NCBI GenBank assembly: GCA_004431415.1
Contig: QPMI01000522.1
Location: 248,001 to 312,000, forward strand
DNA from: Cyanophora paradoxa CCMP329
Lineage: Eukaryota; Plantae; Glaucophyta
Direction of reading: 5' to 3'
Length of the DNA stretch: 64,000 bases
The notes beneath the pieces were generated by a model that saw only the letters and a list, made by a program, of their open reading frames with translations, did not search any database and was not told the DNA's origin. The stretch's first letter is position 1; each line of letters begins with the position of its first letter. Position numbers and translations under genes: made by a program. Of this stretch, positions 55,538-64,000 are shown in pieces.

Positions 55538-56821
55538 ATGAGCCGATCATCCACGGACGACACACCGGATGTCGCCGCCATGCCCGGCGAACGACGTAGA
55601 CCGTGCTTGCGCGACGCTCGCCGGCGCCCAGGCCCCGCGGGCCCACGCCCCCGCCCCCTTTCCCCCGGACTGGGCCCAAAGGGCGCCCACCTGGGCTCCT
55701 CCCCCCCGAGGCCGGTACAGAAGCGTGTACGCTCGGACCCCCTGCCCCCCCGTCCGCAGTCCGAGCCAGACGAGGCCCGCCCGGACCCGGCCTTCAAGCC
55801 GGCCCCCGCCCTCCCGCCCCAGCGCCCCGCCCTCGCCCTCCGGCTCCAGCGCCCCGCCCCCGCCCTCCGGCTCCAGCGCCCCGCCCTCGCCCTCCGGCTC
55901 CTGCGCCCCGCCCCCGCCCTCCGGCTCCTGCGCCCCGCCCCCGCCCTCCGGCTCCAGCACCCCGCCCCGCCCTCCGGCTCCAGCGCCCCGCCCCCGCCCT
56001 TCGGCTCCAGCGCCCCGCCCCCGCCCCCAGCTCCAGCTCCCCGCCCTCGCCCTCCGGCTCCAGCGCCCTGCCCCGCCCTCCGGCTCCCGCGCCCCGCCCC
56101 CGCCCTCCGGCTCCCGCGCCCCGCCCCCGCCCCCAGCTCCAGCACCCCGCCCCCGCCCTCCGGCTCCAGCGCCCCGCCCCCGCCCTCCGGCTCCAGCAGA
56201 CCGCCCCCGCCCTCCAGCTCCCGCGCCCCGCCCCCGCCCTCCGGCTCCAGCGCCCCGCCCCCGCCCTCCAGCTCCCGCGCCCCGCCCCGCCCTCCGGCTC
56301 CATCAGACCGCCCCCGCCCTCCAGCTCTAGCGCCCCGCCCCCGCCCTCCGGCTCCCGCGCCCCGCCCCCGCCCTCCTGCCCCAGCGCCCCGCCCCGCCCC
56401 CAGCTCCAGCGCCCCGCCCCGCCCTCCCGCCCAAGCGCCCCGCCCCGCCCTAGGCCTCCCGCCCCAGCGCCCCGCCCCCGCCCTCCTGCTCCAGCGCTCC
56501 GCCCCTGCCCTCCTGCTCCAGCACCCCGCCCCCGCCCTCCGGCTCCAGCGCCCCGCCCCGCTCCCAGCCCGTCACCCTTCCCGCCCGCCCCCCCAGCTTC
56601 CCGATTCCAGCGCCTCACTCCCGCCATCCTCCAGCGCTCCGTGTACCCCACTCCCTGCCCTTCTCCCCCCCCCCTACGCCGTGCCTCGGCGGGCACGCCT
56701 GCTGCTCTCCCCCTGCCCCGTGCGCCTCGCCTTCCCCCTCCCCTCCTTTTCCACAGGACCAAGGACACCAACGCCTCAGGCCCTCCTAAAGCCGCAGATC
56801 GATAGCTCCCAGCTAGGATAA
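55538..56821 (+). CDS. Pro-rich ORF running through the minisatellite; coding status doubtful
   Basis: 427-aa ORF with non-repetitive N-terminus (..PVQKRVRSDP..), then PALRLQRPA / PPPSGSSAP repeats; the repeat is open in all frames. Confidence 0.3.
   Translation: MSRSSTDDTPDVAAMPGERRRPCLRDARRRPGPAGPRPRPLSPGLGPKGAHLGSSPPRPVQKRVRSDPLPPRPQSEPDEARPDPAFKPAPALPPQRPALALRLQRPAPALRLQRPALALRLLRPAPALRLLRPAPALRLQHPAPPSGSSAPPPPFGSSAPPPPPAPAPRPRPPAPAPCPALRLPRPAPALRLPRPAPAPSSSTPPPPSGSSAPPPPSGSSRPPPPSSSRAPPPPSGSSAPPPPSSSRAPPRPPAPSDRPRPPALAPRPRPPAPAPRPRPPAPAPRPAPSSSAPPRPPAQAPRPALGLPPQRPAPALLLQRSAPALLLQHPAPALRLQRPAPLPARHPSRPPPQLPDSSASLPPSSSAPCTPLPALLPPPYAVPRRARLLLSPCPVRLAFPLPSFSTGPRTPTPQALLKPQIDSSQLG
55800..56565 (+). 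repeat. C-rich minisatellite, ~27-bp unit CCCCGCCCTCCGGCTCCAGCGCCCCGC
   Basis: More than 20 variant tandem units read directly. Confidence 0.9.
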
Positions 56822-57493: not shown

Positions 57494-59022
57494 TCAGGCG
57501 CACGCCTCCAAGAGCTCGCCGCCGGCGCTCACGCCTGCTTCAAGTTCGAATTCGGTGTCGAGTTCCATCGCCTTGTCCTCGATCTCGAACTCGAATTCTT
57601 CATCGGATGCCTGCGCAACAGGTTGGAGACGCGGTCTTGCTTGCGATCGCGAGTGGCAGCTTACCTCTTGCACGTCGTTGTCGAGAATCCGCTGCGCGCA
57701 CTGCGTGTGCATTGTTCATCACAAGCCGCTGATCATGATTCGGCACTAGTACTGCAGCTGAGGGACTATATATACTATGATAAATACGCACAAATTTCAT
57801 CGGCTCGCCGTTTTTATATCCGCTGTGGCAGTAGTTGCTCTTGCAGTCCTCGTTTTTGTAGCACTTGTAGCCGTTGTTGCACTTGCTAATATTACTGGAA
57901 GCACAGTGCCCGCCGCAGTCCACATCGCTTTCGCAGATTGTGTTGCCAGGACACCTCGTGCTTTCCTCACCGTCGTGGCTCTTGTTGTAGCAGTGCGCGA
58001 TGGTCTTCTTCTCGGTCTCCTCCACGAACATATACTGGATTCCCGAATTGCCGAAATGGGTGTTCAACTGATGTTCATGTACATGCATGTGGTGGCGTGT
58101 GAGTATACGTATCGCAGAATTAGTGTCGCAGCGCTAGCGCACATCAGATTTGTTTACCTGCGAAACGGGCTGAACAAAAAAAGATTGGGCATAAAAAAAA
58201 GTAGAAACTTTCTTACACATATCGGCCCGACAATGTAGTCCGTTTCTTTGTAATCCTTGAACGCTTTCTCCGCCGCCAAAGCAAAAGATTCCGGGATGCC
58301 TGCATGTGTAATATTAAATAATTTTTTTCAGAGTGCAATTTCCGAGCGTACGAGTGGCCTGGCAATTGCGCATCATGATCACTCACTTGGAAGAATGTTC
58401 AACCAAAAGAGCTGCATATTTGCGCCAGGGGTTCCATTCTCATACTGCGGCGGTTCGAATTCCATGACGAAAGTGCAGCTAATTTTATGAATGAACTCTC
58501 AAGCATGGTCATGCATATGGCCGACGCACGTCTTCGATCGCCTCTACGTATTTTTTATCTGCGCCGCCTCCAAACTTGATTTTGTAACTGAAATTGAAGA
58601 GATCAAGAGGCGCGCGGGCAAGGATGTGAGCCATCAAAGTGACTCATAATCAGTGACTTGCCCATCCTTGACGCAAACCGAGTTTACCCAACCGCGGATC
58701 CCTCGTGGCAGCTGCGGGTCGGATGAGGTCCGGGAGGACCGCAGCTGCGTGGTTCTAGATCTAGATCTCTCCCGGGCACGAACCTACCTTGGGTAAGGGA
58801 TCCTCCATCTTTCCGTTGAATCCCCTTGATCCAAAGTTGGAACCGCCGGACCGACCCTGGCACTATTTCGCAGCATCCCGACGCATTTAGACTTTGAGAC
58901 AGGGCAATTTTGAACTCGACATTTTCGAATTCAGCTGCGCACGTTCGTATCTTGGAAGATGCGCAATGCGAATAGCATGTCTGCGTCGCCACTGCCAGTA
59001 ACACCGTCGGCTTTCGGAGCAT
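57494..59022 (-). CDS. Spliced, lower-GC gene for a probably secreted protein with a DVDCGG-type Cys-rich module and acidic tail
   Basis: HCYNKSHDGEE..CESDVDCGGHC..KCNNGYKCYKNEDCKSNYCHSG; exon ITHAGIPESFALAAEKAFKDYKETDYIVGP; tail ASDEEFEFEIEDKAMELDTEFELEAG..EACA*; TATAAAT at ~59084-59090 upstream of MLRKPTVLLAVA. Confidence 0.55.
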
Positions 59023-59442
59023 AATTGATCTGCGCAGTCCAGCAACCGTCGGACTAAGTCGCCACGACCCGGCCGCGGTGGCCATTTATATTGCCAGGCC
59101 TAGGTGCATCGGCAACATGTACAGGCCTATATATATATCCTATATATAGATAGCTCGGCGTGCAAACCTGATAATGCACTGCGCGCGCGCGCGCTCGCGG
59201 TCGGCCGCGTCAGAATAGCAGAGACCGTGCAAACCACCGTGGCCCAGTGGCACGGTGCACGTGCACGGTTGCAAATGTGGTGCACCTTTTTCCCAGTCCT
59301 TGTTCTCGGGCGACGAGGTGCACGTCGGACCAGCTGCAGGTTTAGAGCTTGATCCGCCCATTTTCAAGCAAGCGCTAGCTTAAGTTGTGCGAGCTTAAGC
59401 TTAAGATCTTTGTCGATGTCGAGCTCCGGTCCAGCTGCGCGA

Positions 59443-59629
59443 GATATATACGTATATATACGTACACGTACTACTATAGCTAGCGCTACGTGTACGTATA
59501 AGTATACGTATACGTATACGTATATATTACGTATAGGCGTAATAAACCGCCGCGGCCCGGCGGCGGCGCCGGCGCGGCCGGTACGTACGCCACGGTACGC
59601 GTACGCGCGTATACCTATATATATATATA
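59443..59629. repeat. Alternating purine-pyrimidine, palindrome-rich tract ending in (TA)n
   Basis: Perfect 14-bp stem TATACGTACACGTA (59457-59470) / TACGTGTACGTATA (59487-59500); (GTATAC)n; TA run to 59629. Confidence 0.8.
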
Positions 59630-59986
59630 CGAGGGCCATCAATGGGCCAAACGCGAAAAGTCAACTCCGAGAGCTCGAGACTCGGAAGTGACGCTTGGAT
59701 TGCGGAGGTTCTTATAACCGCCGCAACAGCTGTGGGGGTACCCCCTCCGAGGCTGGCGATCGCGGCGATCACGACCCTGGCGATCGCGATTTTCTCCCGA
59801 TCGCGACCCTTTTCGATCGCGATTTCGAGATCGGGGACATTAATGCGATCGCGAGAAAGGAAAAATCGGAAAAGGCCGAAAAGTGCCGTTTTCACGCGTG
59901 AAATCGATCGAAAACGAGGGTTCGAATCCCGGGCCCGGATTTGGACTTGGTCAGAATCTCGAGTCAAAATGGGAGAAAAATGTGAC

Positions 59987-60070
59987 CTGGGACTTGGGAC
60001 TTGGACTTGGACTTGGGACTTGGGACTTGGACTTGGGACTTGGAAGAGTTGGAATCAGAGTCTGGACCCA
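59987..60070 (+). repeat. (GGGACTT/GGACTT)n module 1 with conserved GGAAGAGTT..GTCTGG.CCCA tail
   Basis: Direct reading; tail shared with modules 2 and 3. Confidence 0.9.
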
Positions 60071-60143
60071 AAAGCGGGGAAATTTTCGGACGGGGAGAAA
60101 AATGTCAGGCAATCTCTATTACGATTTTCCCTTTGAGTTGAAT

Positions 60144-60572
60144 ATGGCATTCGAGAGGTTGCGCGAGTTCTGGCGTTGGCACCTCACGGGACATGACATC
60201 CCCGACGTAACACCAGAGCCCAACACACAGGGCGTGCTTGAAGTCATCCGTCAATATCCGCGTCGATTCAATGAATGGATTGAGTTCCACGCGACGAGCC
60301 GTTTCCAGAGCCTCCCCGAGGCCATACGCGAAAATTTCGTGAGGCTGGTGGGACCAGGCTACGACAACCCTAACAATCATAGACCACGCCCAGCTGGCGT
60401 GACACGCGAAGCTCGAGAAGACCGTAGACTTTTCCGCAGGGAATTGAGAGAGGATAGACGGAGGCTTTCAATGGGGCTCCCGCAGATTGTGAGGGGGTAC
60501 AGCCCGGATTACGAGACTTACCAAGAATTGTACGGCTTCGAAAATCCCTTTGAGAGGGCACTACCAGGGTGA
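60144..60572 (+). CDS. Intronless hypothetical protein of the element (alternative ATG at 60102)
   Basis: MAFERLREFWRWHLTGHDIPDVTPEP..YQELYGFENPFERALPG*; natural amino-acid composition; the upstream extension in the ORF track is repeat translation. Confidence 0.6.
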   Translation: MAFERLREFWRWHLTGHDIPDVTPEPNTQGVLEVIRQYPRRFNEWIEFHATSRFQSLPEAIRENFVRLVGPGYDNPNNHRPRPAGVTREAREDRRLFRRELREDRRRLSMGLPQIVRGYSPDYETYQELYGFENPFERALPG

Positions 60573-60911
60573 GGGGCCAGGGGGGCCCCTGAGGGTGTAC
60601 CCCCCACCCGAGACTCGACCTTCGGCGGACGCACTCGGGCGATTTCCGTCAGGCCGGCTCCCTTTTTCTGCCTTCGGTCCAACGCTAAATTTGGCTTTTT
60701 TCAGGCCAGTTGGCAACGTTTTCCGTTGCGAACTAGACCGCGAAAAAAATCGCCCACAAAACCGCGGTCCGCCGCCATTTTGGCTCACTCTTGAAACGGG
60801 TTCGCCGCCTTCTCTCAGCCCAAGGAAACCCCGCCTCTCCGAATTTTCACAAGTCCGCCCTCACAGTCACCTCACGTTTTGCCTTTGCTGATTTCTTTTC
60901 CCTTTGCGCAG

Positions 60912-61981
60912 ATGTCGATTCCCGCTGAGCTTGCCGAGGACTTCGCCTTTGTCCAAGCAACGTGGGCTAACTCCGGTGGCACTCAAGGGGCTACCCCTGA
61001 GATGGAGCAGCGCGCCGACGCTCTGGGGTACATCTACAATTATGCCATCTTACGCGCCACTGGCCCCGAAGTGCAACTTCTCCCCAAGTCCGCCTTCACG
61101 TCCAAGGCCAAGAAATCCAAGTCCAAGCAACCCAAGCCCGAGCCCCCCGTCGACGTGCCCCCCGTCCCCGGCTGGGTCAAGACCGCCAACGGCTGGGGCG
61201 ACCCCAAGCTTTTCGCCGAGTCTGCTGCCGAGACGCTCGCCTGGGCCTACCCCCTCAAGTCTTCACGAATTACCCCCCTCCGTCATCGTCGTCATCTGCC
61301 CCTCAGCCCGTCGCCGAGCCCGCCCCCGAGCCCGCCGATGACGCCAAGTCCGAGGCCTCTGACGTCGAGTCTGACATCAACGACTTCATCGACTTTGACG
61401 TGCCGATTCCATACGACTCTGAGTCGTCTTCTGACTCTGAAGGCGACAACGAAAACCCGACTCGCAAGCGCCGCATTATCAAGACCAAGTCAATCGTCAA
61501 GAAGAAGTTCATGGAGACTACGTCATTCACCGACAACTCCGAGCGCGTCAAGGACCCCGCCAAGGCACACGAGAAGGACTTGAAGCTCGGCGCCGGCATT
61601 GCCCGTTCTCGCGTGACGTCACACTACAGCGAGCGCCTGACTCAGCACGTCAAGACCATTGAGAAGCGCGTCCTCTGCAACGAGCTCCGCAAGGAGTTGG
61701 AGCGCAAGCGGCGCCACGAGCGCCTTGTCCAGTACCAGATCAACAAGGCGCGGATCGCCGAGCGCAAGCAGAAGGAGGCGGCCGAGCTCAAGGCGCGCAT
61801 CGAGGCTCAGCAGCAGCGCGAGGCAGAGGCGGCAGCGGCCTTGGCGGCGCAGCGCGAGCGCGAGCGGCAGGACTTGGTGCAGGCAGCGCAGTCCCTTCCC
61901 CGCATTCCCCTTAAGTCGGCGCCCGAGGGCCTCATTGAGTTGGTTTCCGATGACGATGACTCTGACTTTGAGATGCTGTAA
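60912..61981 (+). CDS. Element-encoded nuclear coiled-coil protein (one gene with a 1-bp frameshift at the C run ~61250-61254)
   Basis: MSIPAELAEDFAF..TLAWAYP continues in the -1 frame as PQVFTNYPPPSSSSSAPQPVAEPAPEPADDAKSEASDVESD..PTRKRRIIK..coiled coil..LIELVSDDDDSDFEML*; strong codon bias in both parts. Confidence 0.7.
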
Positions 61982-62053
61982 ATAGTATTGCGTCATTCCA
62001 TTGTACATACTTGTAAAAATTGGCCGACTATTCAGTTACGACTTGGCGCGATC

Positions 62054-62171
62054 CTGGGACTTGGGACTTGGGACTTGGGACTTGGGACTTGGGACTTGGG
62101 ACTTGGGAAGAGTTAGACTCAGGGTCTGGGCCCAGAATCTCTCTGGATCTGAGAGTTTGCCGCGCCAAGTC
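62054..62171 (+). repeat. (GGGACTT)7 module 2, left arm of an inverted repeat
   Basis: Heptamer array plus ~65-bp tail aligning with the reverse complement of 62487-62549. Confidence 0.9.
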
Positions 62172-62394
62172 CCTAACCACCGGGCAGACATGTAGAGGGG
62201 TACGGAAATCTGCATATGACGTTTCTGGTGACATTCCAGGTGAGATTTCAAGCGAGGTAGAGTCTGAACTGGTGTACGACTTGTAGCATGATACTGGACA
62301 TGAAAGCTCACGAGAGTATGCAACCGAAAACGGATGTGAAGAGGGGTAGGAGTTTTCGTGTGAGATGTCGAGAGAAGGAGGGTACGAGATGGGA

Positions 62395-62469
62395 TACGAG
62401 TAAAAAAGACTACGAGTAAAAAGACTACGAGTAAAAAAGAGTATGAGGAGTGGTAGGAGTAAAAAAGTC
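62395..62469 (+). repeat. 16-bp iteron-like direct repeats TACGAGTAAAAAAGAC
   Basis: Two exact copies (62395, 62411) and two variants (62427, 62454). Confidence 0.85.
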
Positions 62470-62486
62470 GGTAGAAAAACTCACCT

Positions 62487-62632
62487 GACTTGTCTGACAA
62501 ATTTCTGATCCTGGAGAAAGTCTGGGCCGGGACCTGGGTTTCAACTCTTCCCAAGTCCCAAGTCCCAAGTCCCAAGTCCCAAGTCCCAAGTCCCAAGTCC
62601 CAAGTCCCAAGTCCCAAGTCCCAAGTCCCAGG
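62487..62632 (-). repeat. (GGGACTT)11 module 3, inverted; right arm
   Basis: Eleven CCCAAGT units at 62550-62626 preceded by the reverse-complemented tail. Confidence 0.9.
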
Positions 62633-62653
62633 TTTTTCTGAACCTAGGGCAAA

Positions 62654-63019
62654 ATGGCCCTGCTCCGGTGCACCGACTCGCAAGACGTCGCCTACAACGT
62701 CCTGGTCAACTCGGACGTACCCCCGAGTGCCTTGGAGTTTCCCTGGAGAGTGGACAGGGACAGGGTGAGCAAGACGTTTGGAGGGCGCAAGCACTACCTC
62801 TCCCAGCTGATCCTCGGGAAGTCGCCACGTGGACGCTACGTGGAACACATCAACGGCAACCCGCTGGACTACAGGAGGGAGAACCTGCGCTGGGCATCAA
62901 TGTCGGAGATTCGCAAGAAGAGGAGGGGGTACGCCAATTTACAGGAGAAGAGCGAGGAGATTCGGGAGATGATGGAGGCGACACAGGTGCTAATGCAGCT
63001 TAGCCAGTCTAGACGCTAG
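62654..63019 (+). CDS. HNH (HNH_3-type) endonuclease-like protein, active site degenerate
   Basis: YLSQLILGKSPRGRYVEHINGNPLDYRRENLRW matches the phage/virus pattern LHRLI.G....VDHINGN.LDNRR.NLR. Confidence 0.8.
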   Translation: MALLRCTDSQDVAYNVLVNSDVPPSALEFPWRVDRDRVSKTFGGRKHYLSQLILGKSPRGRYVEHINGNPLDYRRENLRWASMSEIRKKRRGYANLQEKSEEIREMMEATQVLMQLSQSRR

Positions 63020-63821
63020 TGGTGTGAATCTTGGTGTCGTACTCGCGACCGACCGTTTCCCAGGCCACGTAAACTTCGGCTCCGGCGCCTGGCGCTGTCG
63101 AGTTGGTAGTCGCAGTCGTGTAGTCCGCCTCTGCCTCAATTAGTTCGGCCATGAGGGTAGAGCCCACGACCATTCCAGAGGTAGGCATTCCGGCGATGTT
63201 GTTGTACAATTTGAAAGTGAATTTCGTGAAGAGGAGCCGGGGCCAGACCTGGGTACGGGGATTCGAGGCGCCGTATGAATAATCGGTACCCGAGGCGCCG
63301 CCCGTGGTGGCATTCGTCATCATCTCCTTTGCGGTCATCTTCCAGAGGTTGTACATCTCAAAGGGAACGGCCTGCGTGGTCTTGTGTGTGGCATCGATGA
63401 GGGCGCCATCTAAATGCGTTTTGATGTTCGGATTCGCACCATTCCCGAATTTGCGAGTGAGGGCGGTGTTAGCGGTGAACTTGAGTTCGAGCACGCGAAT
63501 GGCGGGCCGATCAGGCACAGAGGGCTCTATCTTTTTCAGGAGGCCCGAGAGCCAGAGCGCCTCCGCCTCATCCGCGCTCACGCCCGAGTCGATGTCAAAG
63601 TACACGTACACGGAGCAGGAGGCGGGATTCTCGAAATCGTTGGAGGTGACGCGCAACATGACGGGATTCTGGACCCTCACGGTGAGCGGGGTGGCGTAGT
63701 TTCCGTCCCACTCCACCTTGTCCGTCCCTGCGTTGGCCACGTTCCCAGCGTTGCCGTAGAAATCGGGGACGATCGAGCCGGCAGACACGGTCTTCACGAT
63801 GGTGGCCGAGGTGGTCGGCAT
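63009..63821 (-). CDS. Intronless 270-aa beta-rich protein, candidate virion structural protein
   Basis: Thr/Ala/Gly/Asn-rich with many alternating beta-strand segments (LTVRVQ, SVYVYFDI, IRVLELKF, FTFKLY, EVYVAW); no recognised motif. Confidence 0.65.
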   Translation of the reverse strand: MPTTSATIVKTVSAGSIVPDFYGNAGNVANAGTDKVEWDGNYATPLTVRVQNPVMLRVTSNDFENPASCSVYVYFDIDSGVSADEAEALWLSGLLKKIEPSVPDRPAIRVLELKFTANTALTRKFGNGANPNIKTHLDGALIDATHKTTQAVPFEMYNLWKMTAKEMMTNATTGGASGTDYSYGASNPRTQVWPRLLFTKFTFKLYNNIAGMPTSGMVVGSTLMAELIEAEADYTTATTNSTAPGAGAEVYVAWETVGREYDTKIHTTSV

Positions 63822-63844
63822 TTTGCGACCTCAAATGAGAAAGA

Positions 63845-64000
63845 TTATCCGTGAAAGAGGGTGATGTCGCCACCGATGTTCATGACGCGGGCCCCAGGCA
63901 CAGAGTCAGCGTCGGTGCCGTACGCGTAGGAAATCGAGCACTCACGCAGCTCCGCGCAGAGGCTGGCGCCCGTGCTGAAGTGGGGCTGGTCGGCGGCGTA
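63845..64000 (-). CDS. 3' end of a further element gene (absent from the ORF track; 5' part outside the window)
   Basis: Open frame from 64000: YAADQPHFSTGASLCAELRECSISYAYGTDADSVPGARVMNIGGDITLFHG*, stop at 63845-63847, 23 bp before the next ATG. Confidence 0.6.
   Translation of the reverse strand, partial: YAADQPHFSTGASLCAELRECSISYAYGTDADSVPGARVMNIGGDITLFHG

Follow-up and report, generated by a model that had tools for sequence, protein, structure and literature searches.

Toward the right-hand end of a 64,000-nucleotide stretch of the Cyanophora paradoxa CCMP329 genome (contig QPMI01000522.1, positions 248,001 to 312,000; hereafter the window), a G-rich 7-bp unit, GGGACTT, is iterated in three modules, which raises the question of what such arrays do and to which genetic entity they belong. 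Protist genomes abound in small endogenous DNA viruses; in the literature covered, neither a replication origin nor a mode of integration is described for the mriyavirus-like ones. A first-pass annotation of the window had taken the modules for sites of protein binding, recombination or end processing. Here we argue that they are likely the protein-binding control sites of the element in which they lie, rather than telomeres or a flip switch; as far as protein binding is concerned, that annotation is probably right. Our best explanation, to which we assign a probability of roughly 0.4, is that the modules are iterated cis-acting sites with an origin or enhancer role.

The features of the locus are summarized in Table 1. 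Sequence inspection recovered the three previously proposed cassettes at 59987(+), 62054(+) and 62632(-), and their arrangement, with modules 1 and 2 as direct repeats and module 3 inverted, was reproduced by inspection, TRF and arm alignment alike. TRF delimited the arrays at 59984-60043 (module 1; period 7, 9.0 copies, 90% matches), 62055-62108 (module 2; 7-bp unit, 7.7 copies, 100% matches) and 62549-62630 (module 3, minus strand; 7-bp unit, 11.7 copies, 100% matches). All three modules are intergenic and lie inside 2.6 kb, and two of the three have a start codon within ~30 bp: module 1 ends ~30 bp upstream of the ATG of a doubtful ORF, and the outer end of module 3 is 21 bp upstream of the start of an HNH gene. 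Modules 2 and 3 had been described as inverted around ~315 bp, and with the tails counted the spacer (62172-62486) is indeed 315 bp long; it contains 15-bp purine-rich direct repeats of its own (62403-62448). Together, modules 2 and 3 provide 89-nt inverted arms of 89% identity.

Table 1. Features at the right-hand end of the window (positions counted from its first letter).
Feature	Position	Strand	Remarks
13-bp direct repeat around module 1	59971-59983 and 60093-60105	+	2/2000 shuffles
Module 1	59987..60073	+	~9 7-bp units and tail; several units one G short
155-aa ORF, doubtful gene	60105..60572	+	without homologue or gene model
Gene 2, acidic/coiled-coil protein of ~355 aa	60912..61981	+	unknown family
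Module 2	62053..62171	+	7.7 perfect units, then 64-bp tail
Core between inverted modules 2 and 3	62172..62486	.	315 bp, non-coding
Module 3	62487..62632	-	11.7 perfect units, then 63-bp tail; orientation opposite to that of modules 1 and 2
HNH endonuclease, free-standing, 121 aa	62654..63019	+	Pfam HNH_3, E 1.9e-07, above cut-off
270-aa protein, predicted OB fold (T7 gp2.5 / Enc34 ssDNA-binding type)	63009..63821	-	predicted structure
Second, distant SSB-like paralogue, 226 aa, 26% identical, 3' end	63848..64000	-	runs past the window

Behind each array comes a tail of 30-65 bp, and the three tails are related. Tails 1 and 2 share 25/30 matches and tails 2 and 3 align over 66 columns, in both cases with 0/2000 mononucleotide shuffles as good, and the resemblance of tails 1 and 3 is weaker (21/2000 mononucleotide shuffles). 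The flanks upstream of the arrays revealed no shared sequence (288 to 1965 of 2000 shuffles). The tail of module 2 contains a perfect 12-bp palindrome (62125-62136), which is imperfect in the tails of modules 1 and 3. Module 2 is enclosed by an 11-bp inverted repeat (62040-62050 / 62161-62171), and each copy of the 13-bp direct repeat around module 1 includes an AAAATG start context, which is used by 3/4 ORFs. Visual inspection also singled out a 20-bp inverted match (59734-59753 / 60585-60604; 17/20) around module 1 and the doubtful ORF; its core motif is a common one in host DNA, with 117 copies.

Whether such arrays might be common dispersed host microsatellites was asked at the outset, and within the window they are not. 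Tandem doublets of the 7-bp unit occur exclusively in the three modules across the 64-kb window, in which single copies outside the modules number five (one of them at 62167); the conserved tail, together with confinement to one 2.6-kb stretch, sets the modules apart from ordinary dispersed host microsatellites. It is important to note that the genome was assembled from long reads with majority-rule correction (PMC6704402), and given indel-type errors in the assembly, the unit counts and the short units of module 1 may be wrong. Such errors, seen as frameshifts in gene 2 and in many of its copies, speak for a reading of the modules as an assembly artefact, or, in related proposals, as a host microsatellite or telomere-derived arrays. 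These possibilities are nevertheless highly improbable, since one mis-assembled copy cannot give rise to three distinct tails with their own substitutions, no such array is present in the host part of the window, and the unit differs from the C. paradoxa telomere unit, given as TTAGGG (PMC3622300, supplement file 2, consulted in part).

The previously suggested link to telomeres is likewise not sustained, given the host unit and the complete lack of TTAGGG doublets in the 64-kb window. As the 7-bp unit differs from TTAGGG, 'telomere-like' describes a mere resemblance (the GGG run), which rules out insertion into telomeres by homology. The arrays of HHV-6 and Marek's disease virus copy the host telomere unit, lie at the genome termini and integrate at telomeres. 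The modules are like these in being short G-rich tandem arrays, but their unit is not the host's and this copy is surrounded by host genes; modules 2 and 3 have an internal position. The number of GGG runs given earlier for module 2 (8) and module 3 (12) proved correct, and module 1 has 5 GGG and 4 GG runs. While the runs of modules 2 and 3 thus agree with the proposed G-quadruplex pattern, that pattern is not distinctive, with 131/135 of the matches in the window falling in host DNA at 1-56800; module 1 does not match the G-quadruplex regex, and G4Hunter-type scores are 0.91-1.11.

Searches for the modules elsewhere returned little. The repeat-plus-tail pattern had 0 matches in viral contigs, and topic-based searches of the Cyanophora literature on telomeres, Polinton-like viruses, capsids, mirusvirus and mriyavirus brought up no account of the modules. 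Protein P0024 was considered as a second copy of a module; its end is a reading of module 2 with an identical unit count, and as it may be this very locus it was not counted.

That the modules belong to a mobile or viral element, as had been supposed, is borne out by their neighbour genes, which are multicopy and syntenic. In 2-kb steps, GC content is 58-75% up to 56 kb and drops to 52-59% beyond 58 kb, and the window covers ~4 kb of the element before it ends. The modules presumably arrived with the element and would be present in its other copies. Of the two genes that modules 1 and 2 were said to bracket, gene 2 is well supported, but the 155-aa ORF is doubtful: no homologue was found among 83 candidates of 85-272 aa, an exact look-up in the protein collection found it absent, and its GC3 is 0.59 compared with 0.77-0.83 in neighbour genes. 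Gene 2 matches no Pfam or PHROG family. In this assembly it has one frameshift near 61250, which is absent from intact copies and is likely a consensus error; many gene-2 models are frameshifted among the copies. Its N-terminus (60912-61250 in the window) exists in three divergent types over the first 70 residues (47-100% identity) and is possibly a variable host-interaction domain; beyond these residues the protein is highly conserved, with mosaics among copies.

The HNH gene beside module 3 also matched PHROG HNH families and belongs to a protein cluster of 8. Both the 121-aa and the 270-aa protein have exact matches in the protein collection, where every named member of their clusters is a gene model from Cyanophora paradoxa. 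No recombinase was detected among the ORFs scanned in the window, and no capsid, ATPase, integrase, polymerase or HUH gene lies within it. Of 24 sequencing runs containing at least half of the words of 59000-64000, 14 were listed, and no RNA run was among those listed.

At the sequence level the 270-aa protein had no match in PDB, Pfam or PHROGs, and its assignment relies on structure prediction. A model built from 12 sequences attained pLDDT 65 and pTM 0.71; an earlier one from 5 sequences (pLDDT 36) was unusable. Foldseek ranked Enc34 SSB first for this model (E 0.043, with no E below 0.001), and a viral structure library returned phage SSB/DUF2815 and uncharacterised giant-virus proteins (best E 0.002). 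The independent aligner VIA placed T7 gp2.5 (1je5) first (Z 4.5, rmsd 4.5, 118 aligned) and Enc34 SSB second (Z 4.3) in a list of mostly OB folds, with no Z >=5 and with bacterial SSBs, RecG and Cdc13 (Z 3.8) tying within 1 Z of the best. Because the structure searches agree and their scores are weak, the protein is likely, not certainly, an OB-fold ssDNA-binding protein. A penton was considered as an alternative identity and dropped, the top structure rows being OB folds with no jelly roll prominent (which is short of a formal exclusion). Relatives of the SSB-like protein beyond C. paradoxa amounted to four environmental or other-run records only (P0008, P0012, P0097, P0098).

The genes recur throughout the genome. 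Gene 2 has 42 named models on 42 contigs and the 270-aa SSB-like gene 33 named models on 32 contigs, for 55 contigs in all with HNH included; since masked members and proteins beyond the length limits are excluded, all of these counts are lower bounds. Gene 2 lies within two gene numbers on 20/32 of the SSB-like contigs, and an SSB-like or HNH gene lies within two gene numbers on 23/42 of the gene-2 contigs. On tig00000144, gene 2 is g9126, the HNH gene is g9127 and the second SSB-like paralogue is g9129. The recurrence of these neighbours in kept order indicates that the block is a stable part of a multicopy element. Gene 2 and the SSB-like gene occur together on 20 contigs, as immediate neighbours in 12/20 and separated by a single model in 8/20. 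Possibly the HNH gene is an optional insertion; alternatively, the gene caller may often miss it.

These copies bear directly on the proposal that recombination at the modules excises 59987-62053 or inverts either 62172-62486 or the whole span from module 1 to module 3. The geometry permits such events; 12/32 SSB-like contigs lack a named gene 2 nearby (though one of them, tig00000388, has gene 2 by accession number), and 3/15 typed copies are recombinant across modules 2-3. Linkage across these modules is, however, partly kept: gene-2 end type and SSB-like type are concordant in 12/15 (Fisher p 0.04) and a second marker in 13/18 (p 0.14), values to be read in light of markers picked by eye, the dropping of 5/20 pairs as untyped or mixed, the relatedness of the copies, possible chimeric assembly, and gene numbers that carry no strand and are thus blind to inversions. 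Internal mosaics are also found in 5/24 fully typed gene-2 models (40 models in all). The copies evidently recombine, but, with mosaics inside gene 2 too, no recombination hot spot is evident at modules 2-3. Furthermore, gene 2 is no less frequent than the SSB-like gene, the inner segment holds no gene to switch, and the scanned ORFs offer no recombinase. We consider a recombination switch very unlikely. Excision of a two-gene cassette, in particular, is not supported, given the adjacency of gene 2 to HNH or SSB-like genes on 23/42 contigs and the doubtful status of one of the two genes.

The intronless genes, the lower GC, the HNH gene, the SSB-like pair and the known viral load of the genome all point to an element that is likely an endogenous small DNA virus, either mriyavirus-like, which is our first guess, or Polinton-like, our second. 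According to the available text of the sources, C. paradoxa contains 366 viral MCP genes in two clusters, examples of which match giant-virus capsids, and has reported PLVs (PMC10120064); it also has giant-virus insertions and adintovirus-like proteins (PMC12344493, PMC8502044), and Mriyaviricetes-related regions occur in a Glaucocystophyceae assembly (10.1101/2025.04.19.649669). Protein-led searches of viral contigs, metagenome contigs and phage records retrieved no related loci.

With endogenous Mriyaviricetes, as portrayed in the accessible parts of PMC11253617, 10.1101/2025.04.19.649669 and PMC12480563, the locus has in common integration in a glaucophyte, a possible T7-like SSB and a GC content near that of the host, and one haptophyte example has flanking short tandem repeats. 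The T7-like SSB of gamadviruses matches PDB entry 1je5 (PMC11253617, in part), the one that also headed the VIA list. The group is recognized by MCP, packaging ATPase, VLTF2, VLTF3, RuvC, HUH endonuclease and a 35-45 kb genome, and no such gene lies in the window. Unlike its known members, the element has two tandem SSB-like paralogues, and the available portions of these sources describe no comparable cis-element. Likeness to Polinton-like viruses and endogenous virophages (PMC10120064, PMC12220804, PMC8547959, each in part) lies in the dozens of related, recombining copies in a protist genome, in a GC content below that of the host, and in the free-standing HNH gene. Their diagnostic features (double jelly-roll MCP, penton, ATPase, integrase and TIRs) would fall beyond the window, in which no TIR, target duplication, capsid or integrase was seen, and SSB terms had 0 matches in the accessible text of the PLV paper PMC12220804.

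On the left side, a model trained on the host does not distinguish 57-59.6 kb from the element, and no element genes were found left of module 1. The latter observation fits a reading of the modules as end signals, in which module 1 would mark the left junction or lie a little way inside it and the arrays would direct integration, excision or genome packaging, much like telomeric arrays and pac sites in some herpesviruses. The style of 57-59.6 kb, palindrome-rich like host intergenic DNA, fits this reading too. Further points in its favour are the Phaeocystis mriyavirus-type scaffold Phaglo-G, reported to be flanked by short tandem repeats (10.1101/2022.07.28.501842, available text), and the HNH nuclease adjoining module 3, a family that can serve in packaging (PMC12220804, likewise). 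Yet the unit is not the host telomere repeat, this copy has host genes as neighbours and two of the modules (2 and 3) lie internally; moreover, contigs with two named gene-2 copies number 0/42, so that the block is unlikely to lie inside a terminal inverted repeat. End signals are, in our judgement, an unlikely explanation, although one to be taken seriously.

Within this flank, a cluster of short palindromic GATCGCGA-type repeats occupies 59748-59855, immediately left of module 1, and folding of 59700-59930 gives z -3.3. The segment 59050-59700 has the densest palindromic hexamers of the window, with TA-rich hairpins and a folding z of -7.3. It was considered as a hairpin terminus and rejected, host intergenic DNA at 22.0 kb and 40-43.8 kb being similar in style; Rfam matches in this segment were all far under gathering scores.

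Alternatively, 62053-62632 could be a MITE-like remnant in which the arrays serve as terminal inverted repeats, with module 1 a solo end flanked by a 13-bp target duplication and with no role for the element. Its outward-pointing arms (89 nt, 89%) flank a short non-coding core, as terminal inverted repeats should, the 13-bp direct repeat around module 1 is rarely equalled by chance (2/2000 shuffles), and intergenic insertions are known in endogenous virophages (PMC8547959, in part). This reading is unlikely in view of sequence inspection, which found no target duplication directly outside 62053 and 62632, and of the 57 kb of host DNA, in which neither array nor tail is copied; the 13-bp repeat, for its part, coincides with the AAAATG start context of 3/4 ORFs. 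If the modules did turn out to be a local insertion, the finding would be a minor one.

We favour instead the reading of the modules as iterated cis-acting sites, in which the inverted modules 2 and 3 around the 315-bp core would constitute a replication origin or enhancer of the element. Under this model, a few dispersed non-coding copies with a palindromic core would act in both orientations, and array length would drift by slippage; on strand separation, the G-rich strand and the 89-nt arms would become available to the element's SSB-like proteins. Against this interpretation, the divergence of the tails (25/30 between modules 1 and 2) and the 13-bp direct repeat would fit an old insertion as well. 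Baculovirus hrs, each repeat unit of which contains an imperfect palindrome, are the proposed origin and enhancer of a dsDNA virus. The anatomy of the modules may be called hr-like in that they are few, intergenic and present in both orientations, with a palindrome in the conserved tail, drifting arrays, and SSB-like and nuclease genes as neighbours. Both systems have several dispersed intergenic copies with a conserved core and a palindromic part (PMC4535591, available portion); they differ in that the iterated unit here is a 7-bp G-rich microsatellite, not palindromic, that there is one palindrome per module tail, perfect in module 2 only, and that the virus is unrelated.

The most far-reaching form of the argument, in which the modules are the first cis-acting replication/integration signals of an endogenous mriyavirus-like element and the two neighbouring OB-fold proteins, encoded by the virus, bind the G-rich single-stranded arrays in the manner of telomere end-binding proteins, is one that we regard as quite improbable. 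If true, a private repeat and its binder would amount to a virus with its own telomere-like repeat, carried dozens of times over by an alga that can be cultured. A conserved module beside an SSB-like pair and an HNH nuclease, belonging to an element with dozens of diverged copies in a laboratory alga, would offer a directly testable candidate for an origin or integration site.

Two further repeat-bearing regions lie to the left of the modules. A cysteine-rich repeat ORF on the minus strand (57600-58088) occupies a low-GC stretch; it has no Pfam or PHROG match, and its exact sequence is absent from the protein collection. Farther left, a 27-bp unit is repeated 28 times (55802-56559) within a long proline-rich ORF (55538-56821), where GC reaches up to 87%.
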